From: Mnemiopsis leidyi
Lineage: Eukaryota
Length of the DNA: 64,000 nucleotides
NCBI GenBank assembly: GCA_048537945.1
Contig: CM108483.1
Location: 9,786,715 to 9,850,714, forward strand
Direction: 5' to 3'
Both the position numbers and the translations under genes were made by a program. Numbering within the stretch: the first letter of the stretch is position 1; each line of letters starts with the position of its first letter. A model generated the notes under the pieces. The model did not search any database and was not told the DNA's origin. It saw only the letters and a list, made by a program, of their open reading frames with translations. Shown piece after piece: positions 13,946 through 61,459 of this stretch.

Positions 13946-16900
13946 TAGGGTGCGCCCTTTTTTCTAAACCTATATGGGCTCTACCCTTATCTGATAGAGC
14001 TCAACGAGCTGAAAACGAGGATGCCTTCCTTTTTGAAATTGGACAACGGGAAAGACTACCCCTGGTCGTTTAAAAGTTACGACGATCTAGGATGTACATG
14101 TTGCGCACGCGCGAACTCGGACGCTTGCATATGCTGCACCTGTCATAACTCACGCGCATTTAGCGCGGCTTCATGGTAACTTCCGTATACACAATGATTA
14201 TCTAGTCACTGACGTAATGCAGTGCTGGCGACTTTGACAAAAGAAAGCAAAGAGGACATACTCCTGACTGAAATCGACCGAGAAATCGTTTAAAGCTATC
14301 GTCGAGGCTCTAAAATGTGACACTAACTCGATAAATGATAAATGATCGGGATTGTAGCTATATAAAAGGTCACAATTCCTGGAATTATTACAGGAGACAA
14401 ACCTTTGAAACGTAAAACAGATCAAGTGAAACACAATCCGGCGAGGATCAAGTAGCAAGCAAGTTACTAGTACTAAAATAAACAAAACCTATATTGCCAA
14501 GTTAGTACTAGTAGTCACAAAATATTTTAGTTACTCAATCGACAGTCGCTCGGTTGCATTATCATAGGAAAGCGAAAGAAACCGTTTACTTTAAACATGC
14601 ACAGCCACAAGCAGTAAGCACACGTTTAACTGAAGTATCGTTCAAGTCAACCCGAATACACAGAGGATATCTCTTATATACCACACTCAGTAGGGGAATG
14701 AAGCGATCTCATTGGCTCCTAGTACGGCTAGCTACGTCACTAGAAGTAGAGACCTAGAGTAAGGTAAAAGTTACGTCACATATCTGCCTGCCGGAGTGAG
14801 GAAAATCAAACGATCTGATTGGCACACAGCTGCAGTCACGTGACTAGATTGAGTGGGGCAAAAGAAACGAACCATCTCTGCTTGCAATTTCCTCACTCAA
14901 ATGATGATGAATCATGATGTGAGTTGTACCGATCTTGAGTGAGGGAAACCAAGCAATCTCATTGGCTAGAAGCAGCAGTCACGTGACCTGGTAGAGTGGG
15001 GAAAAAGAAACGAACCATGTCTGCTTGCAATTTCCTCACTTAAATGATGATGTGACCCGTATCGATCTTGAGTGAGGGAAACCAAGCGATCTCATTGGCT
15101 CATGGCTGCCGTCACGTGACTTGGTAGAGTGGGGCAAAAGATACGTTACACCTTTGCTTGCAACTTTCCCACTCAGATCATGGCGATGCGAACAGTACCG
15201 ATTAGGAGTGAAACGAGACTGAGGCCAGAGTAAGGCAAATCATACGTCACTACAAGAACTTGACGGTCCCCAGAGTGTAATCTTTCGCTCGTTGCCCGTC
15301 AAAAATATGGACTCTGATATGCGAATATCGGCAGCTAGATTAAGATTGTGACCAATCCTTCTCTAGTTAACTTCGCGGCCAGAAAACGTTCCGCTACTAT
15401 ACCAGGGAAAATACTCGAGCTGCGGGGTGCCGTGTCAGATTTTGTCCGCCTGATTAGGTCTGGCGCATTGTCAGGCCTGCTATAAGAAATTTTTCATCGA
15501 TGCATGATTTACAATATAATCATACTTAATTTTTTTAGTGCTAGTCAATCAAACTGAAACATTAATCTAACGTCGTATACGAGTGTTGATAAAACTATAT
15601 CCGTCCGAACGTTAAACGGTTGTGTAGTAATACTACTACTAGTACAAGTACAACTAAGGGTTGCTTCAGTGTTAGGACATAGGTTCAAGGATCGACCGGG
15701 ATCGCTTTTTCAGCCGGGACCGGGACCGGGATCGGTAAAAATGGCCGGGACCGGGATTTTGCCGGGACCGGGATTGTAACCGGGACCGGGACTGTAACCG
15801 GGACCGGGATTGCGACCGGGATCCCGGTCGGTCCCTGCAAAGGTTATAGTTCGATTTAAAATAGAGGGGGTGGATTTAAATGACAAGTCGATTAAGCTGG
15901 TACAAAGGAGACGTCCATGTTAATGTAACTGATTGGCTTTACGATAGACTACAGCAATTAAGGTGCACTATTAGTATTTTTCATATTGGGCGGATTACAT
16001 TTTTCGGAAAGCAGGGGCTGACTCACGCCTCAATATCTGATCGCCATACTTGACACTACACCCGATCCGTGCTGTTTACATTATCTTGTTAAATCTTAAT
16101 TTGTCACCGTGTCGCAGTAGACTGTGAGGAAGCCTTCTTCAGTTGACATCTTCAGCAGGCTTTTTTCGACCCTCATTATCAGAAGCGAATTATTCTCCAA
16201 GAATTTAAAATGTCGGGATGGTGCACGTGCTGTACAACCGCAAGCTCCAATTCCAGGGCATTTTAACTGATCGGTAATATAACGGGTATTTTAACTTTAA
16301 GCTGTTGTCTCACGCTCTGCAAAGTGATTGCATTGTTTTAGGAGAACAATCTTAGAATTAGATAGGGATGTATTATTATTTGCAAGGTCAAGCTACATAG
16401 TGATATATTGTAGATAAACTTAAATATTTGATCATTTCTGTTGAGTCTGTCCGCTCTTGGTCCTAGTAAAAAGTTGCGTTACTGTCGGCTGATAAGGAAG
16501 CGAAGCTAAAAATCTAAACAAAATCTGGATACTGTCAAACCAATTGTGAATTGGTGTTAGTTTTACGTTGTAGGTTGAGAACCTTCTGCCGCGGCCATCA
16601 CGGGCTCTCGCGCATTTCTGGCCTAGCGACACAAATTTTAATTTTTAAGAAATTCTAGACGCTCATCGCCCGTTAAGTTTTACTTTAAAGCTAAACGCTA
16701 CTGGCCAGATCAAAGCGATGTATCATTATATAATGGTCACTCGCAAGACTAGCTTTATAAGTCGATTAGATCGCTTATTTCCCCGGAGCGGCAGCCCCAC
16801 TAAAAAGTTATTTTGAATCTGTAAATGTGCACCGGTAACAGTAACACAGTAAAGGATCCCCAATCAGCAATGGAGGTGACGTGTCTTCAGCTTTAGCGGT

Positions 16901-18151
16901 TACCGTTCGAGTACAACTACATAGTAGTGACGTGTGATTCGCCTAACTCTAGCCTCAATCACGTGACCAGCTGCAAGCCAAAGAGATCGCTTGGTTTCCT
17001 TCACTCCTAATCGGTGCAGGTCGCATCGTTGTGATCTGAGTGGGGGAGTTGCCTGGTGCAAGCAAAGTTGAAAGTTGTGACGTATCCTTTGCCCCACTCT
17101 ACCAAGTCACGTGACGGCAGCTATGAGCCAATGAGATCGCTTGACTTCCCTCACTCAAGATCGGTACAGCTCATATCATCATTTGAGTGAGGAAATTGCA
17201 AGCAGACATGGTTCGGTTCTTTTTCCAGACTCTACCAGGTCACGTGACTGCAGCTGCGAGCCAATGAGAAGCTTGGTTTCCCTCACTCCAACAGGTAGAT
17301 ATGAGACGTAACTTTTACCTTACTGTAGGTCTCTAGTGACGCAGCCGGCCTGAGGAGCCAATCAGATCGCTTGATTCCCCTACTGAGTGTGGTATATAAG
17401 AGCTTTACTTGTTGTTTTCGGGTTGATTTGATCGATACTTCCAGTTACACGTGTGCTTACTGCTTGCGGCTGTGCATATTTAACAATCGGTTTCTTTCGC
17501 TTCGCTATAATAATGCTACCGAGCTACTGTAGATTGAGTGACTGAAATATTTAGCGACTACTAAGTTTGCAACATAGGTAAGCCTCACGTTGTGGCCCCG
17601 TTAGTCCTACTGTCATCCCGGTTCTAGTATGAGTACAAGATGCTTGCTTGCCACTTAGTCCACGCTTATCGCCGGATCATTCGATCTGTATTACGCTTGA
17701 AAGGTTTGTCTCTTGTAATAATTCCATCAATTGTGACCTTTGATATAACAACAATCCCGATCATTTATCGAGTTAGTGTCACATTTTAGAGCCTCGACGA
17801 TAGCTTTAAACGATTTCTCGGTCGATTTTAGTCAGGAGTATGTCCTCTTTGCTCTCTTTTGTCAAAGTCGCCAGCACTGCATTACGTCAGAGAATAGATA
17901 ATCATTGTGTATACGGAAGTTACCATGAACCCGCGCTGAATGCGCGTGAGTTATGACAGGTGCAGCATGCAAGCGTCCGAGTTCGCGCGTGCGCAACATG
18001 TACATCCTAGATCGTCGTAACTTTTAAACGACCAGGGGTAGTCTTTCCCGTTGTCCAATTTCAAAAAGGAAGGCATCCTCGTTTTCAGCTCGTTGAGCTC
18101 TATCAGATAAGGGTAGAGCCCATATAGGTTTAGAAAAAAGGGCGCACCCTA
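13946..18151. mobile_element. Non-autonomous foldback-type DNA transposon. It has perfect terminal inverted repeats (tagggtgcgccctttttt...), ~1.3 kb inverted arms (13946-~15245 and ~16880-18151) with ~127 bp tandem subrepeats, a ~1.6 kb unique core without ORFs, and a 9 bp TSD gagaaacgg (13937-13945 / 18152-18160)
   Basis: The reverse complement of 13946-14440 matches 17700-18151 nearly base for base. The subrepeats (gagtgagggaaaccaagc...tcacgtgac...) occur 3x in each arm in mirrored orientation. Identical 9-mers flank the element. Removing the element plus one TSD restores the ORF2 frame. Confidence 0.85.
15700..15840. repeat. (gaccggga)-type microsatellite with palindromic character, inside the core of the foldback element
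   Basis: Iterated cgggaccgggat motifs ending in the palindrome gaccgggatcccggtc. Confidence 0.8.
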
Positions 18152-18160
18152 GAGAAACGG

Positions 18161-20050
18161 GCAGTAGAGACTATAAAGGACAACCCAAAATACTTCTTTT
18201 CATATGCTAAACGTCTACAAAAGACAAAGTCCACCATACCTGTCCTTAGAGATGAAAATGGCAGGCTGGTAGAGGACCCTGCGATTAAAGCTGAACTGTT
18301 GCAAACCCAATATCAAAAGGTTTTCAGCAACCCAAAGGATGCAAACCTTGAAGAGTGTATGGGAAATCCGGGTTTACCACAGGGATCAAATCAAGGTTTT
18401 GGTGAACTCAGTTTTACAATAGAAGACATCTTAGAAGCCCTGGAGGAATTAGATCCGTACTCGGCAGCACCTGACGGCGATATTCCTGCAAAGATTCTGA
18501 AGGTCTGTAGATACCAGCTAGCGGGCCCACTCAAATTGCTATGGTACGAGTCATTCAGCAGGGGGTGCATACCGGAGGAGCTTAAGACACAGTATATCAC
18601 TCCTATTTACAAAAAGGGTGATAGGACGGACCCTGCAAACTACAGGCCAGTGTCACTGACCTCTCATGTTATGAAGACCTTTGAGAGGGTGATGAGGAAG
18701 TACCTCGTCAAGTATCTTGAGGATTCAGAGTTCCTGCATAACAACCAACATGGGTTCAGAAAGAAAAGGAGCTGTATGACCCAACTCCTCAGCCATATCG
18801 ATCAGATTTACCAGTCGCTCAACAACAACGACGAAGTCGATGTGATCTATCTAGACTTTGCTAAGGCTTTCGATAAAGTCGATCACTCGATCCTACTTGC
18901 TAAATTAGCTCGTTATGGCATTAAAGGTAAAGCACTCAAGTGGCTTAATGAGTTTCTGTGTGGAAGGAAGCAGACAGTAGTTGTTGAAGGCACGAGGTCA
19001 TCTCTACAACCGGTTGTGAGTGGTGTACCTCAAGGGACAGTACTGGGTCCTATTCTTTTTGTGCTCTACATAAACGATCTGTTGAGTACAATTAAACACA
19101 GCTGCGGGTTTAGCTTCGCCGATGATACTAAACTCATCGGAGGTATTCAAGGGCTATCCAGTGTGAACCACCTACAAGATGACCTGAACTTAGTGATAGA
19201 GTGGTCAAGGAGTAATAATATGGAGCTGCACGAGCAGAAGTTTGAAGTGGTCAGCTACAACCTCAACACGTCGAAGACTCTAAGAGAGCTCCCGTTATAC
19301 CCTGAAAATGTTGAGTATAGCACCCCAAAAGGACATGTTATAACACCACAGGAAATTGTCTGTGACCTGGGTGTCAATGTTAGCAGCAGCAGGGGGTGGG
19401 GACCACACATCGAGAAGACAGTTCAGGGAGCTAGGAAGATGGCGGCATGGGTATTGAGCGCGTTCAGAGATCGGTCACCCACTGTGATGCTCACATTATA
19501 TAAGAGTATGGTCCGGTCCAAACTTGAATACTGCTGCCCAGTCTGGAATCCTGTGAAGATTACAGAGATTCAGAGGCTAGAGAACGTACAGAGATCGTTC
19601 ACAAGGAAGATACTTGGCTGCAGTGAGCTTCAATACTGGGACAGGCTAAAGAAGCTCAAGTTAATGTCACTTCAAAGAAGAAGAGAGCGTTACTGCATCA
19701 TACACGTTTGGAAGATCTTAAACGAAGAGGCTCCGAATGACATTGGCTTCACATTCAACTGTCACCAGCGACTGGGGTTGAAGGCGGTTATACCACCGGT
19801 GAACAAGAACTCCCAACTGTCGGTGAGATCTGACTACGACAGTACATTCAGGGTTAGAGCAGCTCAGCTCTTCAACATCCTGCCACCAGAGCTCCGTGCT
19901 ACTACCTCACTGGATGGCTTTAAGGCAGGACTTGGAAGATTCATGGACCAGTGCCCAGACACCCCACCGATCCCGGGTTACACTCCATCGAACGACAACT
20001 CGCTACTGAGCTGGAGGAGGACGCACACGATGCAGTTGTCCTGTGCATGA
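18161..20050 (+). CDS. LINE ORF2 3' part: reverse transcriptase domain plus a C-terminal domain, in frame with 12737-13945 once the nested insertion is removed
   Basis: RT motifs 1-7 (PDGDIPAKILK, YRPVSLTSHVMKTFERV, QHGFRKKRSCMTQL, IYLDFAKAFDKVDH, SGVPQGTVLGPILF, FADDTKLIG). The join ...gagaaacgg|gcagtagag reads EKRAVET, and the excised length 4215 equals 3x1405. Confidence 0.9.
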   Translation, partial: AVETIKDNPKYFFSYAKRLQKTKSTIPVLRDENGRLVEDPAIKAELLQTQYQKVFSNPKDANLEECMGNPGLPQGSNQGFGELSFTIEDILEALEELDPYSAAPDGDIPAKILKVCRYQLAGPLKLLWYESFSRGCIPEELKTQYITPIYKKGDRTDPANYRPVSLTSHVMKTFERVMRKYLVKYLEDSEFLHNNQHGFRKKRSCMTQLLSHIDQIYQSLNNNDEVDVIYLDFAKAFDKVDHSILLAKLARYGIKGKALKWLNEFLCGRKQTVVVEGTRSSLQPVVSGVPQGTVLGPILFVLYINDLLSTIKHSCGFSFADDTKLIGGIQGLSSVNHLQDDLNLVIEWSRSNNMELHEQKFEVVSYNLNTSKTLRELPLYPENVEYSTPKGHVITPQEIVCDLGVNVSSSRGWGPHIEKTVQGARKMAAWVLSAFRDRSPTVMLTLYKSMVRSKLEYCCPVWNPVKITEIQRLENVQRSFTRKILGCSELQYWDRLKKLKLMSLQRRRERYCIIHVWKILNEEAPNDIGFTFNCHQRLGLKAVIPPVNKNSQLSVRSDYDSTFRVRAAQLFNILPPELRATTSLDGFKAGLGRFMDQCPDTPPIPGYTPSNDNSLLSWRRTHTMQLSCA

Positions 20051-25439: not shown

Positions 25440-25915
25440 CAATAAACTTCCCAGGCCGGTAACCAGTACCCAGGCCGGTAACCAGTACCCAGGCCGGTAA
25501 ACAGTACCCATGCCGGTAAACAGTACCCATGCCGGTAAACAGTACCCATGCCGGTAAACAGTACCCATGCCGGTAAACAGTACCCAGGCCGGTAAACAGT
25601 ACCCATGCCGGTAAACAGTACCCATGCCGGTAAACAGTACCCATGCCGGTAAACAGTACCCAGGCCGGTAAACAGTACCCATGCCGGTAAACAGTACCCA
25701 GGCCGGTAAACAGTACCCATGCCGGTAAACAGTACCCATGCCGGTAAACAGTACCCAGGCCGGTAAACAGTACCCAGGCCGGTAAACAGTACCCATGCCG
25801 GTAAACAGTACCCAGGCCGGTAAACAGTACCCAGGCCGGTAACCAGTACCCAGACCGGTAAACAGTACCCAGAGCGGTAACCAGTACCCATGCCGGTAAA
25901 CAGTACCAATAATCT
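25440..25915. repeat. Minisatellite of ~24 copies of a 20 bp unit ccggtaaacagtacccaggc (with cat/cag variants)
   Basis: Direct tandem iteration. The three overlapping minus-strand ORFs in the track here are repeat-translation artefacts. Confidence 0.95.
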
Positions 25916-39851: not shown

Positions 39852-41159
39852 TTAGGTTGTTCGAAAAAGATTGTCAGTAGTCGAATAAAGGAGCTGATAT
39901 AGTAAAATGGCGGAAAATTTTAATGTATTTGGGAAACATGATCTCCATTAATTTCAGTTACACGTTCTCAGTGGTCACACAGCTTCTTAAGTTGGTCCAT
40001 CAGGATGTTTTCTGACATCAGTCTTATGCTCTGCTGAAGGCGGCCTTGACATCTTCTGGGCCGTTAAAACATAATTTCTAAGGTCCTGCTTGATTTCTCT
40101 TAACATATATCCGTCAAGAAGGTCTGAAACTGGAGAATAGGGTGCCTGGTGAACAACTGAGATTCCGTTCTGTTTATGATAATCTTGCAAAATAGTGGCT
40201 GAGAGAGATTTGCATGGTCCATTGAGGTGTGATTTTTTTCACAGAATGTTTGTGTGTTTTGAGGCACATAAACCTTTTAGATGTGTCATTTAGGTACTTA
40301 ATCATAGTGGTGGCATCAATAGTTGTACCTTGGTGCATCACAGATACTGAAAATCTTTTAGGCTTGCAAGTGAACCTGATTAAACCCATTGTTTTCTTTT
40401 TTGTTAACTTTGACTCACATCTGTCGGTTTCGGGTCTTTTTTGCCAATCCAAACTCTTCCATTGTACTTTTGAGACCACAAAAACCAAGGTTTGTCTTCA
40501 ATGACATAGTTCGACCCCACAAACTGCAGACCCTTGGTGTTAAACAGCTCAAGTAACGCTCTGCAACATGCCACCCAAGCTGTTTTGTTGCCCACTGACA
40601 AAAAATGAGGTACCCAGAAGGCATGCACGTTTCTGAGGATAAGATTCTTAGTTAGAATATCAAAAGCGCATGTCTTTGGTATAGAAAGTCGTTAGGCAAT
40701 ATCAGTGCATGATAATCATGAGTTTTGAGTTTTTATTCGCTTTATTTTCCTGACTGCTTCAGTGGTACAGGTCACAATTGGTCTACCAGGGCTTGTCCTC
40801 TTTTCCTGGTTAAATCGACCATTCAAGATATCTGAAATCCAACAGAAAACATTCCTTTCATTAGGGCTAGCATCCCCGTGAACCGCTACAAGCTCACTAT
40901 GAATGTCTGCAGCAGATAGACCCATCTTGTGTCGAGTCAAAACATTGAAACGAAAATCACGATTCATCTCATTCAGCGGAGGTAGAAAATGAAATCAAAA
41001 AGCTTAGTTTAAAGGGCTGTTTAAGTTCAACCCTTATCCTAAAAATCACTTATCTTTACCTAAAATTGTCTGATAAAACCGATCCTGGTAACGAAGTTTT
41101 ACTCAGACTTTTACTTTTAGAATAAAACGCTCACTGACAATCTTTTTCGAACGCACTAA
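39852..41159 (-). mobile_element. Degenerate mariner-like (Tc1/mariner) element, 1308 bp, with ~32 bp imperfect TIRs and flanking TA dinucleotides
   Basis: Left end ttaggttgttcgaaaaagattgtcagtag. The reverse complement of the right end is ttagtgcgttcgaaaaagattgtcagtgag. Minus-strand ORF fragments carry the mariner transposase HTH (SPGRPIVTCTTEAV), DEKWF-like (IEDKPWFLW) and C-terminal HQAPYSP..D motifs. Confidence 0.85.
39987..40967 (-). pseudogene. Mariner transposase open frame broken into at least 4 frameshifted ORF fragments
   Basis: Track ORFs 40716-40967, 40404-40628, 40174-40488 and 39987-40190 (all minus) each match successive parts of mariner transposase but lie in different frames. 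Confidence 0.8.
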
Positions 41160-41866: not shown

Positions 41867-43183
41867 TTGTTTACTTCAGCTATCAAAATGCCGATTCCAA
41901 ATCAACAGACTGCCTCTGAAGTTATGAAAGAGCGCGAAAGGCTTTACAAGCTTATTATCGGTCAACTCCGTAAAGACAAATTTGAGACTGTTGCATATGA
42001 GTTAACAGTTGCGCTCAAGAATGCCACTGGTGGATTTATGATTCAGAGTGCTCCTACAAATAGGCTTAGTCAGCTAGTCCAGTATGGAATAAAATATGAA
42101 GAACTTAATGAAGAGACTGAGACGCATAGCAAAAAGCTTGAGAAAGCCACAAACCTTGGCCCTGGTTTAGATCTAGAGTATGACACAGATGACATGAACT
42201 CCTCTCCTACTGTTATTCAATATGAAACTGCTTATGTTACCTCACACAAAGCCCCCTGTCGTGTTGCCTGCTTTACAGCTGATGGAAAACTCTGTGCTAC
42301 AGGGAGTGTGGATGCAAGTCTAAAAATAATGGATGTTGAACGGATGATTGCCAAATCACAGCAGCTTCAGAGGCAAGAGAACGAAAATCATCCTGTCATA
42401 AGAACTCTTTATGACCATCTTGACTCGATAACTGCACTCACTTTCCATCCTGTTACAACACACTTGGTAAGTGGATCCAAGGACTGCACCATCAAGGTGT
42501 TTGACTTTACCAAAGCTAGCGTGAAAAAAGCAGTCAAGTGTCTGGAGGAGGGGGCATCAGTCAGAAGTTTGGCTTTCCACTCTACAGGGGACTATCTGCT
42601 GATGGCTCTTGATCATCCAGTCATAAGATTGTATGATTATGTCACTCTGAAGTGCTATGTTTGTTCAAATAGTCTGTCACAGCACTCGGGTCCTGTTTTG
42701 GCATTATGTTGGAACTCTGACTGTACAATGTATGCAAGTTGCAGTAGTGACGGTTCCATTAAATTGTGGGATGGTGTTAGCAACAGATGTGTGAAAACCT
42801 TTGATGATGCTCACAACGGTGCTGAAGTGACCAGTGTTCAATTCTCAAGGAATGGGAAATATGTGCTATCCAGTGGAAAGGACAGTGTTGTTAAGCTTTG
42901 GGAGGTTACCAGTGGTAACATCTTGAACGAGTATGTAGGTGTCACTCAGCACAACCACCGAACTGGAGCACAGTTTAACCACACCGAGGACCTGATCATA
43001 GCTCCTGATGAGAAAGGAATGGCTGTTGGGTGCTGGGATGCTCGCACTGCTGAGCCTCACCCCCATTTAGTGTCTGGACACAACAATGTTATTCGGGGAG
43101 CAATTCACTCTCCTACCATGCCAGCATTCATATCTTGCAGTGACGATTTCAGGGCCAGATTTTGGTATTACAGAGGAATTTGA
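41867..43183 (+). CDS. CSTF1: Cleavage stimulation factor subunit 1 (CstF-50) ortholog with N-terminal dimerisation region and WD40 repeats, encoded as a single uninterrupted ORF
   Basis: 438 aa ORF collinear with human CSTF1 over its whole length (LYKLIIGQL, YETAYVTSHKAPCRVA, ENHPVIRTLYDH, SNRCVKTFDDAHNGAEV, FNHTED, CSDDFRARFWY). A possible acceptor (tttacttcag) sits just upstream in the 5' UTR. Confidence 0.9.
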   Translation: MFTSAIKMPIPNQQTASEVMKERERLYKLIIGQLRKDKFETVAYELTVALKNATGGFMIQSAPTNRLSQLVQYGIKYEELNEETETHSKKLEKATNLGPGLDLEYDTDDMNSSPTVIQYETAYVTSHKAPCRVACFTADGKLCATGSVDASLKIMDVERMIAKSQQLQRQENENHPVIRTLYDHLDSITALTFHPVTTHLVSGSKDCTIKVFDFTKASVKKAVKCLEEGASVRSLAFHSTGDYLLMALDHPVIRLYDYVTLKCYVCSNSLSQHSGPVLALCWNSDCTMYASCSSDGSIKLWDGVSNRCVKTFDDAHNGAEVTSVQFSRNGKYVLSSGKDSVVKLWEVTSGNILNEYVGVTQHNHRTGAQFNHTEDLIIAPDEKGMAVGCWDARTAEPHPHLVSGHNNVIRGAIHSPTMPAFISCSDDFRARFWYYRGI

Positions 43184-45002
43184 ATAATACCATTTTTACA
43201 TGAATTTATCCACAGACATTTTATTATGCTTGATTGTTTAGACAGTGACACTTGCTTGTGTGGTTGAAAGATTTAGTCATTGATGTGGATCACAGGATGC
43301 AGTTGATTATGATAGAGCTTGTTTTGCTCTACAGTTTTATTTTTGAATATGATAACTTATTGTTTAAATTTGAATTTGATATTCGACTCTATCATTTCGT
43401 TTACCTTTCAAACTAAACAATGTATGAACTTAATCTTCAAAGTTCAGTTGAAGCAGTCCAGAAAATATACCGAATTTTAAAAAAAGTAAAGATTGCCTTG
43501 ATGATGAGATTGAACTAAAGTTATTTAGTTACGAAGTACTTGGCAGCTGAAATAACATTAAAGGTTCATTTCTAGATCTGTTCCTGGCTGCTGGAGAGAG
43601 TGAAATTCCTGAATTCTTACAAGGTCAGTTCTAGTTGGTCAGTTTCTGTACTGTAGTGAATTATACAGCAAAGCATTGAGGTTCTATAGAAGCTATTTTA
43701 CACCATATTCATGTCACTTGCACTAGGGCAGGAAATTTTTCTTTCTCACCAAAAAGTTTAATTCAAAACTGTTCATAATAAATTATTAGTTGTGTCTTTT
43801 CTCTGCACACTAACTTATTCGCGACTAGTGCACGATGGTCTAGCAGTCACTGCACTGCAAAAAAGTTACTACTATTATTCAACTTCAGTTGTATTACTTT
43901 GCTAATTTTTCAGTAAAATTAATATAGTAATTACACCGTAGTAATACCACTGGAGTGGTATTACTTTATTAATACCATTATAGTAATTACACTCCAGTGG
44001 TATTACTAATTCATGTCCCGAAATCGACCTTAAAACACGATTCTAACCAATTTTTTCTGCTTTGGACAGTTAAGTTAAGTACAGTGCGCGCCAAAATTAA
44101 CTTCCGATGTTGACTGTTGTTTCAATGTGTATCTAGGTCCATGTGGTCGATATTTTTGAAATCACATTCAGGCCAATTTTCTGTGAAAATTTCTGCATTT
44201 TTAGGTCTTTTAAGGCCCTAGAGTCCCAATGTAGGTAATTCTAAATGTAATTCGCCCACCTTTTTGTTGACAAAAGGGTTCGATGGGGTGACAAAAAATG
44301 TCAAGTAAATATCTCTACTTCAAGAATTGGAAGAGAAGTAGCCAAATCACGCATTTGTACTGGATAAGCCTCTGTTAGGAACAATTTTTCCCAGCCAAAA
44401 TCACGTATAGTAGCTAGCTGTCAAAAGCTATGTCTATGGACTTACAGCAAAACTTTCAGCAGGATATCTTGAGATATGACCTAACTACGTCGGCGTCCTA
44501 TTTTCAGTAACGACAAGCACACATAACGACGTCATCAAAATACGGCCCTCTGTTGTCAAACCAAACAGATACTAAAATCTAAGAACAGATAACTTGAACT
44601 TTGGTCTGTCTGCCGACACATTAACAGGCACCTCTATGCTCCGACCCTCAGGGCTCCTTCCCTGTAATTGGTAGGGATATGACACGTGACAGTAGACATG
44701 GTTACCTATTGGTTGCGGGGCTCTAGGCTCTCACTATATTCGGGCTGGGTTAAGAAAACAGTCCACTTTATCGTTTGCAAATCATCAGTAAGATAGGGGG
44801 CTCTCAAATGTTTGATAATTTTCCTGATATTAAACGGTTTGGATAAGTGAACAATTGGGCAAAACTGTGCCTTACGTGGACTAAACTAGTAAAATGCTTG
44901 ATTCCGCTTTACTTTTCCTCTTTCAATTCTTGAGAGCCTGGGATATTTACTTGAAATTTTTTATTTTACACCAGCTGTAATTGTTAACAACGCAGTTGAA
45001 TA

Positions 45003-45175
45003 ATACAGTAATACCACTATTGGTATTGCAATTACCATACGTAATTCCACTCGCAAGCTCGTGAAATTACTTCAATAAATCCACTCGCAAGCTCGTGAAT
45101 TTATTGCATGAATACCACTCGCAAGCTCGTGGTATTAATATGGTAATTGCACTACCAATAGTGGTATTACCGTAT
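45003..45175. repeat. Hairpin (MITE-like) structure of ~35 bp inverted repeats flanking 3 tandem copies of ccactcgcaagctcgtga. A related palindromic segment lies at 43910-44005
   Basis: cagtaataccactattggtattgcaattacc ... ggtaattgcactaccaatagtggtattaccg are mutual reverse complements. Confidence 0.6.
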
Positions 45176-46567: not shown

Positions 46568-49500
46568 TAATTAGGGGGGGGGGGCCACGTCCCTAAAAAG
46601 CCCATTTTTACCTTCGCGGACCCCCGAAGGGCCCTAAAAAATGGGCTTTTTTGGGCCCTAGAAAAAATTAAAATCATGCTTTATATTAGAATAATTTAGA
46701 TCAATTCAAACTCGTTCTTTGCATCGTTTTCAATTTTAAAAGGCACTTTGTATGATTTAACCCGTTGTTCTATTGAAATTTGGTCCCAAAAACTCCTTAT
46801 TTGTCCCAATTTTGATCCCAAAAAGTAGCAACTGTCACTTCATTTGGTAGAGTTTTCATGTACTGCTGGGATGCTACTGTAGCATTACTTAAATAGTAAC
46901 TACTACTGGTTTAATGCAGGGTTTTGGGGGTACTACAAGGATATAACAGGGGGATTACTGGGGTACTACTAGGGTCCAACTGTGGTACCAAGTCGGGGTA
47001 CCACCGTGGTACCACTGGGCTCATACTTTGGTACTACCGGGTTACTACATGGGAGCCACAACTTGGTACTACTAGGATACTACTAGATTACTACTGGAAT
47101 ACTACTCGGATATTACTGGGATGCTAATGGAGTACTACACGAGTACTACTGGGGCACCATTGGGGTACTTCTACACTGGGATACAGCTATGATAATGTGA
47201 TACTACTGGGGTACTACAACTGGTTTACTACGGGAATACTACAAGGGTTCAGCTGGGGTACTACTGGGCCTAAAGCACTACATGGGCACTACTGGGGAAC
47301 TACTAGGATACTAATGGGGTACCAGTAACCACTGGGTTATGACTGGGGTACTACTTTTGTTTATAGGGGTACTATTGGGATAATACTAGGATGCTACTGG
47401 GATATGACTGGTGTACACTTCTGGGGTACTACTGGAGTCCTAGAGGGGAACCTTGGGTACCACTGGGGTACCACAGCTAGGTGACTACTGGGGTAATTCA
47501 GTGGTACAACTGGGACATTACTGGAGTACTTAAGGAGTACTACAAGGGTACTTATATAGGAGTAATATAGGAATACTACCTGGGTACTACAGAATTTCTA
47601 CTCACCAATTGGGTCACTTCTTGGCTTCTACAGGAGTACTAAGTAGGCGTTATACTATGGTACTGCTGTGATGCTACTGGGGTATTATAACTCGGTGATT
47701 TTTGGGATACTGGGGTACTACAGTGGTACTACTGGGATACTACTGAGTCACTACTGGGGTACTACAGTAATACTAATTGGATACTACTGTGTCACTACTG
47801 GGGTACTACAGTGGTACTACTGGAATACTACTGGGGTACTACAGTGGTACTACAGTGATACTACTGGGATACTACTGGGTCACTACTGGAGTACTACAGT
47901 GATACTAATGGGATACTACTGGGTCACTACTGGGGTACTACAGTAGTACTACTGGGATACTACTGAGTCACTACTGAGTACTGGGGTACTACAGTAATAC
48001 TAATGGGATACTACTGTGTCACTACTGGGGTACTACAGTGGTACTACTGGTATACTACTGGGGTACTACAGTGGTACTACAGTGATACTACTGGGATACT
48101 ACTGGGTCACTACTGGAGTACTACAGTGATACTAATGGGATACTACTGGGGCACTACTGGGGTACTACAGTGATACTAATGGGATACTACTGGGTCACTA
48201 CTGGGGTACTACAGTGGTACTACTGGGTTACTACTGGAATACTACTGGGTCACTACTGGGGTACTACAGTGGTACTACTGGGATACTTATGGGATACTAC
48301 TGGGTCACTACTGGGGTACTACTGTGGTACTACTGGGATCTAATGGGATACTACTGGGGCACCACTGGGTTACTAATGGGGTACTACAGTGGTACTACTG
48401 GGATACTACTGGGGTACCACTGGATATTGCTTGAGTTCCAAAGGAGTGATACAGGAGAAACATAGGAATAATCCTGGGCTACCAGTGGATTCCTAATTGG
48501 TACTGCAGGAGTACTACTTGGGTACCATTGTTTCACTTCTGGGGTTCTGCAGACTACCAAGTAGGGGTACTACTATGGTACTGCTTGGATGCTACCCGGG
48601 TACTACAGCTGGATCACTACTGGTGTACTACTGGCTTACTGGGGTACTAAAGAATTGTGCTGAGGTACTACTATAGTATCGTTGCATCGGGGTACTCATA
48701 GGGTACTATTGCACCTTGGGCACTACATGTGCATTAATTGGGCACTGCTGGGTACTACTGGTTCACTACTGTGGTATTACCGTGGTTGTAAAAGGTTCTA
48801 TTGGGATAACACTGGAGAACTACTGGGGTACTACAGGGATACTACAAGGATATTACTGGGGTGCCACTGCGTTATTACTAGGATTCACAAGGAGTGCTAC
48901 AGGCCAGGGGTACCACTGGAGTACTACTTGTGCACTTCAGGAGTACTTGTGGGGTACCATTGGGTTACTATTAGGGTACTTTTGCACTACTTAGTTGGGG
49001 TACTGCCGGGATACTACTGTGATACTACTGGGGTACTGCAAAAGTACTAGTGAGGTACTGCAGTTTTACTAAGTTGGGGCACTACTAAGGTAGTTCTGGG
49101 ATACTTCTCAGTGCTGGAGCACTACAGCTTTGTTACTACTGGGATACTACTGGATAACTTTTGGGATACACCTGGGGTACTACTGTGGTACTACTGGGGT
49201 CGTAGCGGTTTAAATAAGGTACTACTGGGGTATTATATTGCTAGTGAACTACTTGAATACAACTGGGGTACTACTTTGTTATTGCTGGGATACTGCTAGG
49301 GTACTACAGGAATGCTACTGGGTTACTACTGGGGTACTGCAGGGACACTAAAGGGGTGTTCTTGGGGTACAATTGCAGCACCACTGGGGTACAACTGTGG
49401 TACTACCGGGGTACTACATGGGTAGTATAGGAGTGCTTCTGGAGAACTACTCAGTACTGGGGTACAACAGGGACAGAAAAGGGGTTAAATTGGGACACTA

Positions 49501-52397: not shown

Positions 52398-52578
<181 letters not shown>

Positions 52579-57306: not shown

Positions 57307-57464
57307 GTATGTGGTTTTTCAGTTCATACGTTTCAAGTAATACCTAAATCATGACACAGGGCGTTTGGAAAGTTGAATGATATCATTCTTATAATTTTAT
57401 TGATTAAATTATGTATATACTATTTCGTGAGCTCATTAAGTAACCGAAAATCGCTACTCTTCAG

Positions 57465-57684
57465 AGCTATGAACCACAACACTAAAACGTCCCTGGACAA
57501 AGAAACAGCGATAGAGTTCAGTAACGCTACCCTTACTTGGGACGTAGTAGATGACGCGGCTTTAATCCTCCAGAACGTTAACGTCAAGATTCCCAAGGGT
57601 AAACTGACGATCGTAGTGGGCGAGGTCGGTTCTGGGAAGACTGCTCTTGTCAGCGCTCTTCTTAACGAGATGCACATTAAGTCT
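57465..57684 (+). CDS. ABCC/MRP exon 14 (NBD1 Walker A: VVGEVGSGKTALVSALLNEM)
   Basis: GxxGxGKT/S P-loop in the MRP NBD1 context. ctcttcag acceptor and GTAAGT donor. Confidence 0.85.
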
Positions 57685-57851
57685 GTAAGTAACCTTTTTT
57701 CTGAACGTCATGATATGCAGTTAATGGAGCCTAATTTAGTAAATTCTGCAAGCCAGGACTTGGCCCGTATAACTAAAAACTTGAAAAGCAGTTTGTTGCC
57801 TAATCGTAAATAAGTAAGTTTTGCTGTAGACGTTAAACTGGAATAATTCAG

Positions 57852-58274
57852 GGAAAGGTAACGAGAAGTATTAAAAGTGATAAGATAAGTTACGCCTCGC
57901 AAAGTCCATGGATTCTCAACTCTACTGTCAAAGAAAACATCATATTCGGACAGCCACTAGACGAGCGTCGGTATAAAAGCGTGTGTGCTGCAGCTTGTCT
58001 CGATTTGGACTTGAAAACACTGCCAGGTGGCGATCAAACTGAAATCGGGGAACGTGGAATCAACCTCAGCGGTGGACAGCGTCAGAGAGTCAGTGTCGCT
58101 CGGGCTCTGTACGCGCAGTCCGATCTTGTTATTCTTGATGATCCGTTATCTGCTCTGGATGCGCACGTTGGAAGTAAACTGTTTGAGAAGGGTATAAAGA
58201 AGTTCCTGGGTGAGGCAAACAGGACTGTTGTTCTCATAACTCATCACCTGCAGTATCTGAAGAATGCCGATTTG
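57852..58274 (+). CDS. ABCC/MRP exon 15 (NBD1 Q-loop, ABC signature LSGGQRQR, Walker B LVILDDPLSALDAHVG, H-loop)
   Basis: Motif-for-motif match to MRP1 NBD1. aattcag acceptor; the donor is placed at the weak GTTGGT site to keep ...NADL|VIELDHG in frame, so the 3' end is less certain. Confidence 0.8.
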
Positions 58275-58466
58275 GTTGGTTACGTTTTTGAAATCAGCTG
58301 ACAGTTGTTAAGCGTTGCTAGGTTTTATCTAAAAATGAACTTTTAACTATATATTCAGATCTAATGAAACTCTTTATTTTACCCGCAGTTGAATTAACTT
58401 ATTATGATTACAGAAGACAAGATGAGAGGGTCAAAGTTACTGAGTATAACACAAAGTTACTTGCAG

Positions 58467-58631
58467 GTTATAGAACTAGACCATGGTAAACTAAGTTACG
58501 TTGGAGATCACACTCAATACGAGAAGGAATCCCAGTTTTACAAGAACTTTCTAGAAAACTTAGCCAACCAAACAGAGGAGGGAGATGAAGTCACGGAGGA
58601 GATACCTAGAAAAGAGTCTGTCATTGATAAG
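58467..58631 (+). CDS. ABCC/MRP exon 16 (end of NBD1 and acidic linker)
   Basis: cttgcag acceptor and GTGACT donor; alternative donors exist up to 58712. Confidence 0.6.
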
Positions 58632-59329
58632 GTGACTGTCATAAACTGTATTGAGAAATTGAGGTGTAACCTGAAAGCAGTGTTACCTGAAAGCAGTGTT
58701 ACAGCGTCTTAAAACTACTCTTAACTCCAAAAGGGCTTATGGACAGCCTTAAGCCGTTCACTGGTTACTTTAAGCCGTATATAGATTGAAATCAGTGAAT
58801 TGCTTACAAGATTAACATTATAAACTTGTCCCCGATTCAGAACCCAGCTCAAGTCAATACTTATGTAAGTAGGTAACTTATTATGTGGTATGTTGCAGTC
58901 TGCCCTGTTTCTTTGCCTATCGTTACTTGCCTTCCTTCGTTTACTCGCAATTCGTATATGTCTTAATTAGATCTTCGTTCATTAAGCTTGCTCATTTTTT
59001 CTTATGTCTTAAAGTTAACCTTTACCATTTAAATGTTAACACGCACCTTTTTTAAAACTAAGGCATTATATTTTTCACTTTAAACTAAAGCATTATATTT
59101 TCCCTTTAAAGATAAAGAAAAAACCCAACAATAAAACCAGATGTTCGGCTAGTCTACTACTCAAATCCTCCACATTTCTTATGGTGTAAAATATAGCCAT
59201 GTATAAATATTGAAACGACAGTATTTTACCTGTCCTACTGGCACAAGGAACCAATATCTAAACTATCGTATTTAAATTGGAGCCGTCTCTAGACGTACTG
59301 TTTAACTACAGTTTCAAATTTGTTTTTAG

Positions 59330-59488
59330 GTAACCGATACTGTAAATGTTGTTGGAAGCAAGAACCAAGTGTTTTTACACACTGTTGCTTGTACAATGTA
59401 CAGCACTGCCATATAAGGCCAACTTGCAACCGGTGTGTCTGTGATGATGTTAATTGGGGGGTTGTGAGCAAGCAAACGCAAAGCTACA
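59330..59488 (-). mobile_element. Inverted partial copy of the SINE body. It forms the left stem of a ~150 bp-stem palindrome with 59625-59783
   Basis: Reverse complement of 59625-59783. Track ORFs 59289-59471(-) and 59648-59833(+) encode identical peptides, which confirms the inverted duplication. Confidence 0.75.
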
Positions 59489-59790
59489 GGACCTGGTCGG
59501 TAAAATTAAGGAGAGCAGGGCCTGGGTAGCTTAGTGGTTATAGGTACTGGAGGTCGTGGGTTCAATTCCCGCTCCAGTCCCCTCGCCTTATTTTCCAACC
59601 GGTCCACTGATTGATTCACATGCCAGATCCTGTAGCTTTGCGTTTGCTTGCTCACAACCCCCCAATTAACATTATCACAGACACACCGGTTGCAAGTTGG
59701 CCTTATATGGCAGTGCTGTACATTGTACAAGCAACAGTGTGTAAAAACACTTGGTTCTTGCTTCCAACAACATTTACATTACACACACAC
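59489..59790 (+). mobile_element. tRNA-derived SINE copy 1. It has a tRNA-like head (gggcctgggTAGCTTAGTGGttatag...GGTTCAATTCCcgctccagtccc, with A-box and B-box) and a ~200 bp unique body
   Basis: The pol III A box (TRGCTTAGTGG) and B box (GGTTCAATTCC) sit at canonical spacing. The segment is duplicated at 59848-60044. It lies in an ABCC intron. Confidence 0.7.
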
Positions 59791-59847
59791 ACAGTCACCC
59801 CGTGTAGCAAGTGAATTGGATGTACAGCTGTGATATCGATAATAGAC

Positions 59848-60044
59848 CTGGTCGGTAAAATTAAGGAGAGCAGGGCCTGGGTAGCTTAGTGGTTATAGCA
59901 ACAGTCTGGGTACTGGAGGTCGTGGGTTCAATTCCCGCTCCAGTCCCCTCGCCTTATTTTCCAACCGGTCCACTGATTGATTCACATGCCAGATCCTGTA
60001 GCTTTGCGTTTGCTTGCTCACAACCCCCCAATTAACAGGTAACT
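59848..60044 (+). mobile_element. tRNA-derived SINE copy 2 (12 bp insertion in the head, body truncated after ccccccaattaaca)
   Basis: About 95 percent identical to 59489-59640. Confidence 0.7.
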
Positions 60045-60362
60045 GATACTTGCAACCTATACTTTGGCTTATGATAGTTTATTAAAAGATAACAACACAA
60101 GTAAAAGTAGGTTCACGTATACGATTTGCAGGTGCTAGACAAATATTAAGACCCTTAGCTTGTTAGAGTCTAGCACTTAGCCCTAAAAGCGGTTTGCTTT
60201 AGAATACATTGGCATACGCATGTGTGTAACTGTTCTGCTGCGATGTGTCTTTAACGATTGTTCCTCTTAAATGTGACTAGGTTTAATAGATCACAAGTAA
60301 AAATGATTCGTTGTAATGCAGGACAATCACATTGCAACAATAATCGTTTATTCTAATTTCAG

Positions 60363-60486
60363 ATGAAGAGACAGGAATCCCGGGCGGAAGATCTAAAGAA
60401 AAAGAAGGGTGGTCTTATGTCTGAAGAGGAACGAGAAAAGGGATCGGTCAGTCTCAGAGTTTACATGATTTGGGCATCTGCAGCAG
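60363..60486 (+). CDS. ABCC/MRP exon 17 (linker and start of TMD2: ...GSVSLRVYMIWASAAG)
   Basis: Matches MRP1 GQVKLSVYWDYMKAIG. tttcag acceptor and GTTCGT donor. Confidence 0.75.
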
Positions 60487-60681
60487 GTTCGTGTTATGTC
60501 ACTGTTTATCCTTTTGAAATCGACTTATAGCAGCTAAATTTGTGCTAAAATTTCTTTTGTCTACTTCAAATTTGTTAATATCACAAGCCGCAGTATAATA
60601 TGTTATTTTATGTACAGTTAACTAACTCATATTTTATTCTGTTCTTGTGAAATTCTTATTACTAATTTTGAAATTATGCAG

Positions 60682-60819
60682 GTGTGACACTGATAATATC
60701 ACTAACTTTACTCCTCATCTCTCAAATTGGTCGTATTGTTGTTGATTATTGGATCACTGTTTGGACGGAGAAACAGATAAAGGGCCCACAGTGGGAAAAC
60801 AACGATACTTACTACATCG
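60682..60819 (+). CDS. ABCC/MRP exon 18 (TMD2)
   Basis: ttatgcag acceptor and GTAATT donor; YWITVWTE matches MRP1 YWLSLWTD. Confidence 0.75.
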
Positions 60820-61102
60820 GTAATTAAACTATTTGAATGTTTGTCTTGTCCAAGGTAGTCAAAAGATTAGTTTAAGTACAATATAATTATAAGGTAAGTT
60901 ATGTCCTGATTTCAATGATGATCCCTAGATTTCTAAGTTGGTCATTTAAAAAGATTAATTGGGTTTAGAGTGTAATTTGGTGTAGCTAAATCAAATATCC
61001 TCATTCATGCGGCTGGTAGTTGGCAAGAAATCTATTTTTGTGACATTTTGCAGAAGAACAATTGATGTACAGATTTGTATCTTATTATAATCCATATCTC
61101 AG

Positions 61103-61277
61103 TAACTTACATTGGTCTGGCATTGCTGTCCAGTTTGCTAGTTTTTGTTGGAACTATCTTGATGGTATTTGACGCGATGCGTGCCAGTCAGACTCTCTTC
61201 AGAAACATGCTGCTTAGAATCATGAAAGCTACCCCTCGCTTTTTTGATATTACCCCTCTTGGGAGAATAATTAGCAG
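61103..61277 (+). CDS. ABCC/MRP exon 19 (TMD2: RASQTLFRNMLLRIMKATPRFFDITPLGRIISR)
   Basis: Matches MRP1 [23 protein letters not shown]. atctcag acceptor and GTAATT donor. Confidence 0.8.
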
Positions 61278-61459
61278 GTAATTCTTATAAAATTAAAATC
61301 TGTAAAAATTATGGTCGTAAGCTTTATAAATGGTCGTAAGCAAATTACTCAACCAAAAACAAACATCCAATTGTACATTTTTTTCTGAACAAAAAACTGT
61401 TTTGATGACTTTAACAACCACCCCGTCCCCAGACAAACGATAACTCTTCCCCTCCCTAG

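Follow-up and report, generated by a model that had tools for sequence, protein, structure and literature searches.

The family Helenus-1_MLe was placed by Kojima (2024, Biology 13:119) among the miniature LTR retrotransposons; its "LTR" of 266 bp includes a tRNA-like sequence, and its internal part (I) measures 97 bp. Its Repbase-style consensus was derived from the Mnemiopsis leidyi assembly MneLei_Aug2011, and it is listed as the only ctenophore "TRIMp3". In the same work the target-site duplication (TSD) of Helenus-1_MLe is entered as "n.d." and no PBS is shown, animal Helenus families giving TSDs of 4 bp; tandem arrays are reported for another Helenus family. Members of the Helenus/TRIMp3 group (Cassandra, Helenus, Ajax) are short overall, and have direct repeats which contain small-RNA-derived sequence and end in TG…CA, a purine-rich tract before the downstream repeat, a PBS by the upstream repeat, and TSDs of 4-5 bp.

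Penelope-like elements (PLEs) leave insertions of a different kind, consisting of partial tandems with an adjoining inverted 5'-truncated copy and an optional tail. Among them the Naiad PLEs are found in ctenophores and lack hammerheads, and MRC1, a non-autonomous PLE, was at one time wrongly placed among LTR elements (PMC8557442). When purified, a PLE protein nicks both strands and extends them; it initiates reverse transcription at two internal sites which lie close to an AC-rich region and have no target homology, and has been proposed to act on a transcript with multiple copies of the element (PMC11167929).

The window analysed here is a stretch of 64,000 nucleotides from M. leidyi; the assignment of the host follows from a neighbouring CSTF1-like ORF (41888-43183) which is identical to KAL5259679.1 of this species. 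Within it a block of 697 bp (59341-60037) makes up 40% of an intron of an ABCC-like ABC transporter gene (58632-60362, plus strand, 1731 bp), which by splice-site reading has GT..AG ends and separates the NBD1/linker exon from the next linker/TMD2 exon. The position inside an ABCC intron had been proposed from the sequence alone, and is borne out by these splice signals, by ABC_tran domain matches upstream (ORFs 57373-57813 and 57981-58301) and by an ABC_membrane match downstream (61066-61278). The block consists of a 149-156-nt inverted repeat around a tRNA-like sequence, followed by a partial tandem copy.

Judged by sequence comparison, the block belongs to an already known, published family. 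In global alignments and with nhmmer (E = 4e-70 for the LTR, 1e-26 for I) its LTR and internal sequence agree with the Helenus-1_MLe consensus at 98-99% identity, the differences being a few single bases and one 11-nt deletion. The sequence-only reading had seen here a cluster of SINEs of an undefined family; what is present is one insertion of Helenus-1_MLe. The head-plus-body unit recognized by that reading does exist as a repeated unit, but it corresponds to the published "LTR", its second copy is the second LTR, and the ca. 100 bp between the two heads is the conserved internal region of the family rather than spacer. That the unit has other copies in the genome is evident from the consensus published from the 2011 M. 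leidyi assembly, which differs slightly from the present copy. No second copy was detected elsewhere in the window, either by blastn at word size 9 or by nhmmer with the consensus, and no match was returned by a protein search with the longest pseudo-ORF or by exact-pattern scans of metagenome, prokaryotic and viral contigs.

Read from left to right, the block begins with the left palindrome arm (59341-59489, minus strand), an inverted and 5'-truncated unit copy which corresponds to the terminal ~150 nt of the LTR (consensus ~118-266). Alignment to the LTR consensus places its 3' end (…CATTTACA, site A) on the outside, pointing leftward. The inversion junction (59490-59496, plus strand) is the 7-nt microhomology GACCTGG, which is common to positions 65-71 of the internal region and, with one mismatch at 59492, to the reverse complement of LTR ~112-118. 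By consensus alignment it opens a 33-nt segment (59490-59522, plus strand) which is the end of the internal region (I65-97) and which a canonical LTR-I-LTR copy would not have before its first LTR. This segment contains the purine-rich tract AAGGAGAGCAGGG (59508-59520), which leaves 2 nt between it and the LTR; purines account for 18 of the final 25 nt of I. There follows on the plus strand one complete LTR with TG…CA termini (59523-59778), which measures 256 bp because of the 11-nt deletion at 59546/59547 and whose 3' half (59630-59778) is the right palindrome arm. Next comes a complete internal region of 99 bp (59779-59877, plus strand; nhmmer and global alignment to Helenus-1_MLe-I) which begins with TTA(CA)6; at its end stand the purine-rich tract (59863-59875) and GCC, the latter being the first 3 nt of the tRNA-like sequence. 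The second LTR (59878-60037, plus strand), which holds the intact head, stops at consensus position 159 of 266, and its 3' end (…CCAATTAACA, site B) likewise points outward, to the right. The block shares with the family consensus its host species, the tRNA-like sequence with A and B boxes and, in its right two thirds, the LTR–I–LTR order, and differs from it in the inverted partial LTR and 33-nt I segment upstream, the last LTR cut at 159/266, and a TSD of 12 bp.

The large palindrome and tandem second copy proposed earlier were both confirmed. The arms (59338-59496 and 59623-59781) extend over 159 nt at 98% complementarity with 126 nt between them (156 nt at 98.7% by blastn), and the core, 59341-59489 against 59630-59778, matches at 148 of 149 positions. 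Mismatches between the arms fall at 59446 and 59492, the second of these within the junction microhomology. The predicted hairpin has a folding energy of -341 kcal/mol (z = -29.7). In the tandem part, 59845-60037 is 100% identical to 59490-59671 except for one 11-nt indel, the sequence GCAACAGTCTG occurring in the second copy only.

Each tRNA-like head possesses an A box (TAGCTTAGTGG; 59527-59537 in the first, 59882-59892 in the second) and a B box (GGTTCAATTCC; 59559-59569 in the first, 59925-59935 in the second). The second head (59875-59946) scores 45.2 bits against the Rfam tRNA model (gathering score 29) and is also called by ARAGORN, which agrees with the earlier proposal of a tRNA-like head carrying both boxes. 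The first head (59520-59581) is damaged, lacks 11 nt in the anticodon arm and falls below the Rfam tRNA threshold. The expected cloverleaf is recovered by the covariance model and ARAGORN, but is not the thermodynamically preferred fold. A T4 run is located in CCTTATTTTCC (59586-59596), 9 nt past the tRNA-like part. Except for its first 3 nt, which in the ARAGORN prediction lie inside the internal region, the tRNA-like sequence is contained within the LTR, so that the LTR border cuts the acceptor stem.

The composite is bracketed by a direct repeat. The left copy, GGTAACCGATAC (59329-59340), is identical to the right copy, GGTAACTGATAC (60038-60049), at 11 of 12 positions, and both abut the block. 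The chance of at least 11 matches in 12 at fixed positions is 2.2e-6, and the TSD measures 12 bp, or 14 bp if an A and a T common to both borders are counted. It encloses the whole composite, and the LTR-I-LTR portion by itself has no flanking duplication. The suggestion that the flanks are a long TSD of a composite insertion was therefore correct, but the copies lie at 59329-59340 and 60038-60049 and not at 59322 and 60045. Since the 12-bp direct repeats abut the composite, the tandem parts are 100% identical bar one indel and the arms agree at 148/149 positions, the block is a single, very recent insertion of Helenus-1_MLe.

Independent short-read assemblies (Logan contigs) contain both outer junctions at 100% identity, the left one in two contigs (L004 and L005) which end 28-30 nt inside the left arm, and the right one in a contig (L008) which spans the right TSD copy and ends 30 nt inside the right end; the internal junctions, including that of the inversion, rest on one assembly. 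No empty allele was found when the orthologous or allelic ABCC intron was sought via linker-specific and CSTF1 routes. The linker-specific query returned just short ENA ORFs on contigs of ≤1.1 kb stopping at the exon, and the Bolinopsis locus reached via CSTF1 ends 2.4 kb into the ABCC gene. A further contig (L011), which carries the same CSTF1 protein as the Bolinopsis locus, reaches only ~83% identity with the window even in its coding sequence, and the ABCC intron would for this reason not align.

The two outer ends of the block are related to each other. Homology to the unit terminates exactly after …ACA on both outer sides, with the 3' ends outward, and in both cases at the same register (…ACA|TTA followed by AC-rich sequence) of a ~80-nt motif which is duplicated inside the unit. 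The site A module (59751-59831, plus strand; …CTTGCTTCCAACAACATTTACA|TTACACACACACAC…) spans the LTR end and the start of the internal region; its bar, 59778|59779, appears in the inverted copy at 59341 and is the left end of the block. Its paralogue, the site B module (59638-59719, plus strand; …CTTGCTCACAACCCCCCAATTAACA|TTATCACAGACACAC…), has its bar at 59671|59672, which corresponds to the right end. Local alignment of the two modules gives a score of 46, compared with a mean of 20.1 and a maximum of 35 in 1000 shuffles, and the 40-nt core alone scores 30 against a shuffle maximum of 26. The outer ends share just 1 nt with the target. Stem-loops at the two end sites were not better than those of shuffled sequences.

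We are inclined, by a narrow balance of judgement, to explain this structure by target-primed reverse transcription in which both strands of a staggered break acted as primers, with a Penelope-like partner as the most likely mobiliser. The target would have been nicked 12 bp apart (top strand …GATAC↓TTGCAA, bottom strand …GTTACC↓TAAAAAC), so providing two 3' ends as primers. From the first primer, cDNA of ~150 nt would have been copied from the normal 3' end of the unit (site A) and become the inverted left arm. From the other, synthesis would have started at the paralogous internal site B, 107 nt upstream, and continued for ~550 nt on a template longer than one unit (LTR 159→1, I 97→1, LTR 266→1, I 97→65). 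The 3' ends of both cDNAs could then have annealed at the microhomology GA(C/T)CTGG and been filled in, repair leaving the 12-bp duplication. In this scheme the target before insertion would have read …TTTTTAGGTAACYGATACTTGCAACC… once, and GGTAACYGATAC would be present twice only through the insertion. The order of these events, the use of an RNA rather than a DNA template and the identity of the enzyme are what we infer.

A Penelope-like partner is named because the anatomy is that of PLE insertions: partial tandem, inverted 5'-truncated copy and two alternative, here putative, starts of reverse transcription. As in PLEs, an inverted 150-nt 3' fragment lies directly upstream of a 5'-truncated unit, which is followed by a further unit in a pseudo-LTR arrangement; the two outer ends may be comparable to the PLE "tail"; AC-rich sequence lies at the putative start sites; and both target strands would have been primed without target homology. 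Like Naiad elements the block has no canonical hammerhead, no Rfam hammerhead match at E ≤ 1 being present in 58500-61000, and a hammerhead-bearing retrozyme was rejected as a candidate on the lack of an Rfam match. It differs from PLEs in the spacing of its ends (107 nt instead of the 30-40 nt of the tail), in that no stem-loop was detected, and in its tRNA-like pol III-type head, which is not a described PLE feature. The comparison is one of anatomy; among the ten window ORFs scanned no Penelope-like reverse transcriptase or GIY-YIG domain was present, only RVT_1 and APE of a non-LTR element. A LINE acting by twin priming might also have served as the mobiliser. For the long cDNA the template must have comprised at least 1.5 units and read through two T4 runs, which is hard to reconcile with a simple pol III transcript made from the tRNA-like promoter.

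The published classification leads to another account, which we think unlikely though with a real chance of being right: the block would stem from a true LTR element whose reverse transcription went astray. DNA resembling a minus-strand strong-stop product, and reverse-complementary to the ~150 nt at the end of the LTR, would have annealed by microhomology beside the polypurine tract and primed plus-strand synthesis, giving inverted arm – I tail – LTR – I – LTR; this molecule would then have been shortened and caught at a staggered break in the chromosome, or abnormally integrated. Expert classification, the TG…CA termini and the purine-rich tract just before the LTR speak for it, as do the left block end, which coincides exactly with the LTR terminus, the succession I tail–LTR–I–LTR, which is that of normal plus-strand synthesis, a junction placed at microhomology 11 nt upstream of the purine tract, and the tandem arrays of the other Helenus family. 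In its direct repeats with small-RNA-derived sequence, its short total length, its TG…CA repeat ends and its purine-rich tract before the downstream repeat the block also resembles the Helenus/TRIMp3 group. The 12-bp duplication, however, is longer than those which LTR integrases make (4-6 bp) and than those of animal Helenus families (4 bp) or of the group (4-5 bp), and the TSD of Helenus-1_MLe itself is entered as "n.d.". The right end, although 107 nt inside the LTR, falls at the paralogous …ACA|TTA register, which random truncation does not predict, and such use of an internal paralogous site is foreign to the group. There is no recognizable PBS by the upstream repeat: neither a PBS nor a TGG adjoins the LTR, as the internal region starts TTACACACACACAG and has its first TGG at nt 37. 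Nor does the internal region show complementarity that would permit self-priming to the element's own tRNA-like sequence, the one tRNA compared, though an internal segment of some tRNA may have served as primer. Finally, the tRNA-like sequence straddles the repeat border, which cuts its acceptor stem.

We give only a small chance to a LINE-dependent, tRNA-derived SINE of which several head-plus-body copies were inserted, either independently or by L1-style twin priming, the flanks being the TSD of the composite. L1-type inversions were reportedly traced to twin priming by Ostertag and Kazazian in 2001. A head with canonical A and B boxes, a (CA)n run past the unit end, an inverted 5' segment joined at microhomology and a non-LTR element with APE and RT domains in the same window all accord with such an origin, and a TSD of 12 bp is typical of LINE-type target-primed reverse transcription and within the variable range of SINE2 elements (roughly 5-20 bp). 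Independent insertions are nevertheless rejected because a single TSD brackets everything. As far as one locus can show, the head does not open a monomeric unit; the sequence between the heads is a 97-bp internal segment which together with the tandem layout belongs to the family consensus rather than to flanking DNA, and the T4 run comes 9 nt past the tRNA-like part. Neither outer end of the block carries tail repeats. A LINE partner recognizable by its 3' end, as the sequence-only reading anticipated, did not emerge, since the unit 3' end does not resemble the 3' region of the non-LTR element in the window, the single LINE compared. In twin priming, moreover, the second start is expected to need homology with the overhang, whereas here it is motif-specific, a paralogue of the 3'-end module sharing 1 nt with the target. 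Rearrangement of a simple copy after insertion (replication template switching or fold-back repair), or an artefact of long-read assembly, seems very improbable. An inversion junction at microhomology is indeed seen in template-switch events, palindromes and near-identical tandem repeats are error-prone in assembly, and a single assembly covers the internal junctions. Yet the perfect reproduction of the outer junctions in independent read sets excludes an artefact there, the 12-bp duplication surrounds the complete composite, and neither process would be expected to place both ends at paralogous end modules. A MITE or foldback DNA transposon was also considered and rejected; the arms represent only part of a larger retroelement unit, and the palindrome does not extend to the right end.

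Returning to double target-primed reverse transcription, we put forward more tentatively, and with doubts that outweigh our confidence, that Helenus-1_MLe as a family is not an LTR retrotransposon. It may instead be a non-autonomous element with a tRNA head, mobilised by the reverse transcriptase of a Penelope-like element, probably of Naiad type, with pseudo-LTRs arising from tandem copying and with a unit that contains a duplicated module for starting reverse transcription. As no other genomic copies of Helenus-1_MLe were retrieved, this reclassification is a single-locus hypothesis. Our literature search found no description of a tRNA-headed, pol III-promoter-bearing, PLE-dependent SINE-like element.

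In the ABCC pre-mRNA the two arms are likely to form a duplex of ~150 bp, a candidate substrate for ADAR or other dsRNA pathways and a possible cause of genomic instability. ADAR1/2 are present in M. leidyi, and A-to-I editing in this animal targets mainly repeats (PMC9989829). Taken at face value the locus is an ordinary, very young transposable element insertion of a published family in an intron. Its ends are at odds with the integrase route under which Helenus-1_MLe is filed, and fit double target-primed reverse transcription. Should this be confirmed family-wide, the only ctenophore "TRIMp3" would move to the world of Penelope-like elements and target-primed reverse transcription; the family would in that case illustrate, in nature, how a PLE-dependent element can recruit a small-RNA promoter, and the present insertion would be a further in vivo footprint of priming from both strands.

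On the basis of 98-99% identity to both parts of the consensus, the 697-bp composite repeat at 59341-60037 (the block) can be assigned securely to Helenus-1_MLe, an already published family and the one "Helenus" family reported in M. leidyi (Kojima 2024, PMC10886601). The consensus sequences in the supplementary FASTA of that paper are a 266-bp LTR (TGGGTAGC…CATTTACA) and a 97-bp internal region, I (TTACACACACACAG…GAGCAGGGCC). [quoted passage not shown] Since each consensus was built from up to 10 genomic hits (PMC10886601) and this one differs from the block copy at several positions, other genomic copies exist, as the sequence-only reading of the locus implied; blastn of the block region against the 64-kb window found no additional copy, searches of metagenome, prokaryotic and viral contigs added none, and no empty allele of the insertion site came to light.

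In family coordinates a direct repeat (59329-59340) is followed by the final ~150 nt of the LTR in inverted orientation (59341-59489), whose outer border coincides exactly with the LTR terminus …CATTTACA, then by the 3'-terminal 33 nt of I (I65-97; 59490-59522), a complete LTR carrying an 11-nt deletion (59523-59778), a complete internal region (59779-59877), LTR positions 1-159 of 266 (59878-60037) and the second direct repeat (60038-60049). What had been read as a SINE cluster is instead one complex insertion of a described family, bracketed by one duplication. The units recognized in that reading are real under other names: "head plus body" corresponds to the LTR and "second head plus truncated body" to the second LTR, and the inverted "body" is an extra LTR fragment, inverted and 5'-truncated; the ~100 bp separating the two heads (the tRNA-like sequences) are conserved Helenus-1_MLe sequence.

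Direct reading of the sequence, a repeat scan, blastn and Rfam/ARAGORN bore out the palindrome, the partial tandem copy, the heads with their A and B boxes and the flanking repeats. The inverted arms (59338-59496 and 59623-59781) measure 159 nt each in the repeat scan, with 98% complementarity and a spacer of 126 nt; blastn against the whole window gave 156 nt at 98.7%. Of the 149 positions in the core arms (59341-59489 and 59630-59778), 148 match, and a further mismatch (59492) falls within the inversion junction. The sole substitution outside the junction, at 59446, 2 nt beyond the site matching the block's right end, gives the left arm a G in place of the A expected from the right arm and the consensus; on the plus strand, the pre-mRNA sense, this is an A-to-G difference, a single site that supports no inference. 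As RNA, the palindrome has a predicted folding energy of -341 kcal/mol (z = -29.7 relative to shuffles). The segment 59845-60037 is a direct partial copy of 59490-59671, the sole difference being 11 nt (GCAACAGTCTG, 59899-59909) present in the second copy only. Their deletion at 59546/59547 leaves the first head without the 5' half of its anticodon arm and shortens its A-B box spacing. Both heads have canonical A (TAGCTTAGTGG) and B (GGTTCAATTCC) boxes; the Rfam tRNA model (gathering score 29) gives the second (59875-59946) 45.2 bits, and ARAGORN calls it too, while the first, minus the 11 nt, falls under the Rfam threshold. ARAGORN also folds the consensus into a cloverleaf, which is tRNA-Ser(gga) by anticodon and lacks the long variable arm that a genuine tRNA-Ser has, and which is on this prediction a pseudo-tRNA. 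It starts 3 nt ahead of the LTR border, so that the "LTR" cuts its acceptor stem.

The direct repeats adjoining the block (GGTAACCGATAC and GGTAACTGATAC) lie a few bases from where they had been placed and are real: for 11 or more matches out of 12 at fixed positions the chance probability is 2.2e-6. The 12-bp duplication encloses the whole composite, the LTR-I-LTR portion itself being without a 4-6-bp duplication, and target and element overlap by one base only at each border. An assembly artefact at the outer junctions is unlikely, since Logan contigs assembled from other sequencing runs (ERR15996620, ERR15996608) contain both at 100% identity. These contigs break off 28-30 nt (left) and 30 nt (right) into the repeat, which is how k-mer assemblies behave at repeats. 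This independent read support covers the outer junctions; the internal ones are known from one assembly.

Homology to the unit ends exactly after …ACA at both outer borders, each the 3' end of its copy and facing outward. The left border is the LTR end/I start in the inverted copy (site A; CTTGCTTCCAACAACATTTACA before and TTACACACACACAC after it), and the right border is its paralogue at LTR position 159 in the direct copy (site B; in the full LTR, CTTGCTCACAACCCCCCAATTAACA before and TTATCACAGACACAC after the block's end), in the same module register. The 40-nt core of the two modules aligns with a score of 30 (maximum of 1000 shuffles, 26), and looser scoring extends this to ~80 nt (59638-59719 with 59751-59831; score 46, shuffle mean 20.1, maximum 35). 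Random truncation at the right was rejected because of this paralogy. No significant stem-loop was found at either site. The two halves join at GACCTGG, a sequence present in I65-71 and, in inverted orientation and with a single mismatch, at LTR ~112-118.

How such a structure arose can be considered in terms of several routes. Because one duplication brackets the whole block, separate SINE insertions are ruled out. In an LTR route, minus-strand strong-stop-like DNA would prime plus-strand synthesis beside the purine tract; it is in line with the TG…CA termini and with a purine-rich stretch (AAGGAGAGCAGGG) that lies 2 nt ahead of the LTR, and it accounts for the exact LTR terminus at the left and for the order I tail–LTR–I–LTR, but leaves the 12-bp duplication and the paralogous right end unexplained. 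Unlike a canonical LTR element, the block has 33 nt of internal sequence ahead of its upstream LTR; I begins TTA(CA)6, has its first TGG at nt 37 and lacks complementarity to the tRNA-like sequence that the element itself carries. The LTR border within the acceptor stem is a further departure from the canonical form. Twin priming by a LINE is possible; the window's non-LTR retrotransposon has nothing in common with the unit's 3' end, its 3' region showing no similarity to the Helenus unit.

Taken together, the two outward, sequence-specific 3' ends, the 5' ends meeting at microhomology, the 12-bp duplication and a long arm spanning one and a half units point to target-primed reverse transcription from both strands, of the Penelope-like element (PLE) type. 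This is the best-supported mechanism and, from one locus and published anatomy, we lean slightly towards it. Synthesis would have started on both strands of a staggered break (implied nicks: top strand …GATAC↓TTGCAA, bottom strand …GTTACC↓TAAAAAC), on a template of more than one unit. PLE insertions form partial tandems (pseudo-LTRs), often with a directly adjoining inverted, 5'-truncated copy and optionally a tail at one end, and their TSDs are often difficult to determine (PMC8557442); the block's partial tandem and inverted 5'-truncated copy match this anatomy. The Naiad clade, found in ctenophores, lacks hammerheads (PMC8557442), and likewise Rfam revealed none in the block region. The pLTR of MRC1, a non-autonomous PLE, once led to its description as a non-autonomous LTR element (PMC8557442). 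Purified PLE protein cuts and extends both strands, with two internal reverse transcription starts in an AC-rich region without target homology, and its proposed template is a transcript carrying multiple element copies (PMC11167929). On several points the block fits the PLE type less well. Its two start sites, neither with a significant stem-loop, lie 107 nt apart, whereas those of the PLE are separated by 30-40. No PLE gene was detected among the ten window ORFs scanned. Each head is followed by a T4 run which the template has to read through, and this argues against a simple pol III transcript.

The block lies, as proposed from the sequence alone, in an ABCC-like gene: its intron (58632-60362, 1731 bp, GT..AG) is flanked by plus-strand ORFs matching ABC_tran (57.4-58.3 kb) and ABC_membrane (61.07-61.28 kb). 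A marine metagenome contig (ENA DRIS22-1 scaffold_36355), which matches the ABCC NBD1 exons and introns (57614-58640) at ~95% identity, stops at the exon preceding this intron and probably derives from a closely related lobate ctenophore or a divergent M. leidyi lineage. Upstream is an intronless CSTF1-like gene (41888-43183, plus strand; 431 aa, CSTF1_dimer and WD40), identical to M. leidyi KAL5259679.1. The protein clusters at 90% identity with Bolinopsis microptera XP_063679369.1, and since in Bolinopsis this gene is likewise upstream of an ABCC-like gene, the synteny is conserved. Just downstream of the CSTF1-like gene, 1291 bp (43884-45174) containing short internal repeats (…GGTATTAC…/…CACTCGCAAGCTCGTG…) are missing from a Logan contig (ERR15996620) which links 43883 to 45175 with a ~10-nt, TATAATCAAC-like overlap, probably reflecting an insertion or deletion polymorphism. 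The non-LTR retrotransposon (11403-20050, plus strand) has an APE endonuclease ORF (12737-13948), an RT ORF (18299-20050) and an ORF1-like ORF of 474 aa with no Pfam match; the ~4 kb between endonuclease and RT imply that it is interrupted or rearranged. Short minus-strand ORFs at 40404-40967, one with a weak Mos1-type HTH_48 match, suggest a decayed mariner/Tc1-like transposase remnant. The window also contains minisatellites at 7741-8924 (38-bp unit x31) and 25450-25907 (19-bp unit x24), an array of an 11/44-bp unit at 47708-48423, the last two with long spurious ORFs, and a (TC)85 microsatellite at 52409-52578.

All parts of the block are nearly identical to one another and to the consensus, which points to a very recent insertion. 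In the ABCC pre-mRNA the arms would pair as a ~150-bp perfect duplex. Since M. leidyi has ADAR1 and ADAR2 orthologues and A-to-I editing mainly at repeats (PMC9989829), the hairpin is a candidate editing or dsRNA substrate; an effect on splicing is a possible consequence. Should a genome-wide census bear out PLE-type insertion, the Helenus-1_MLe "TRIM" would be a tRNA-headed, PLE-dependent element, and of correspondingly greater interest.
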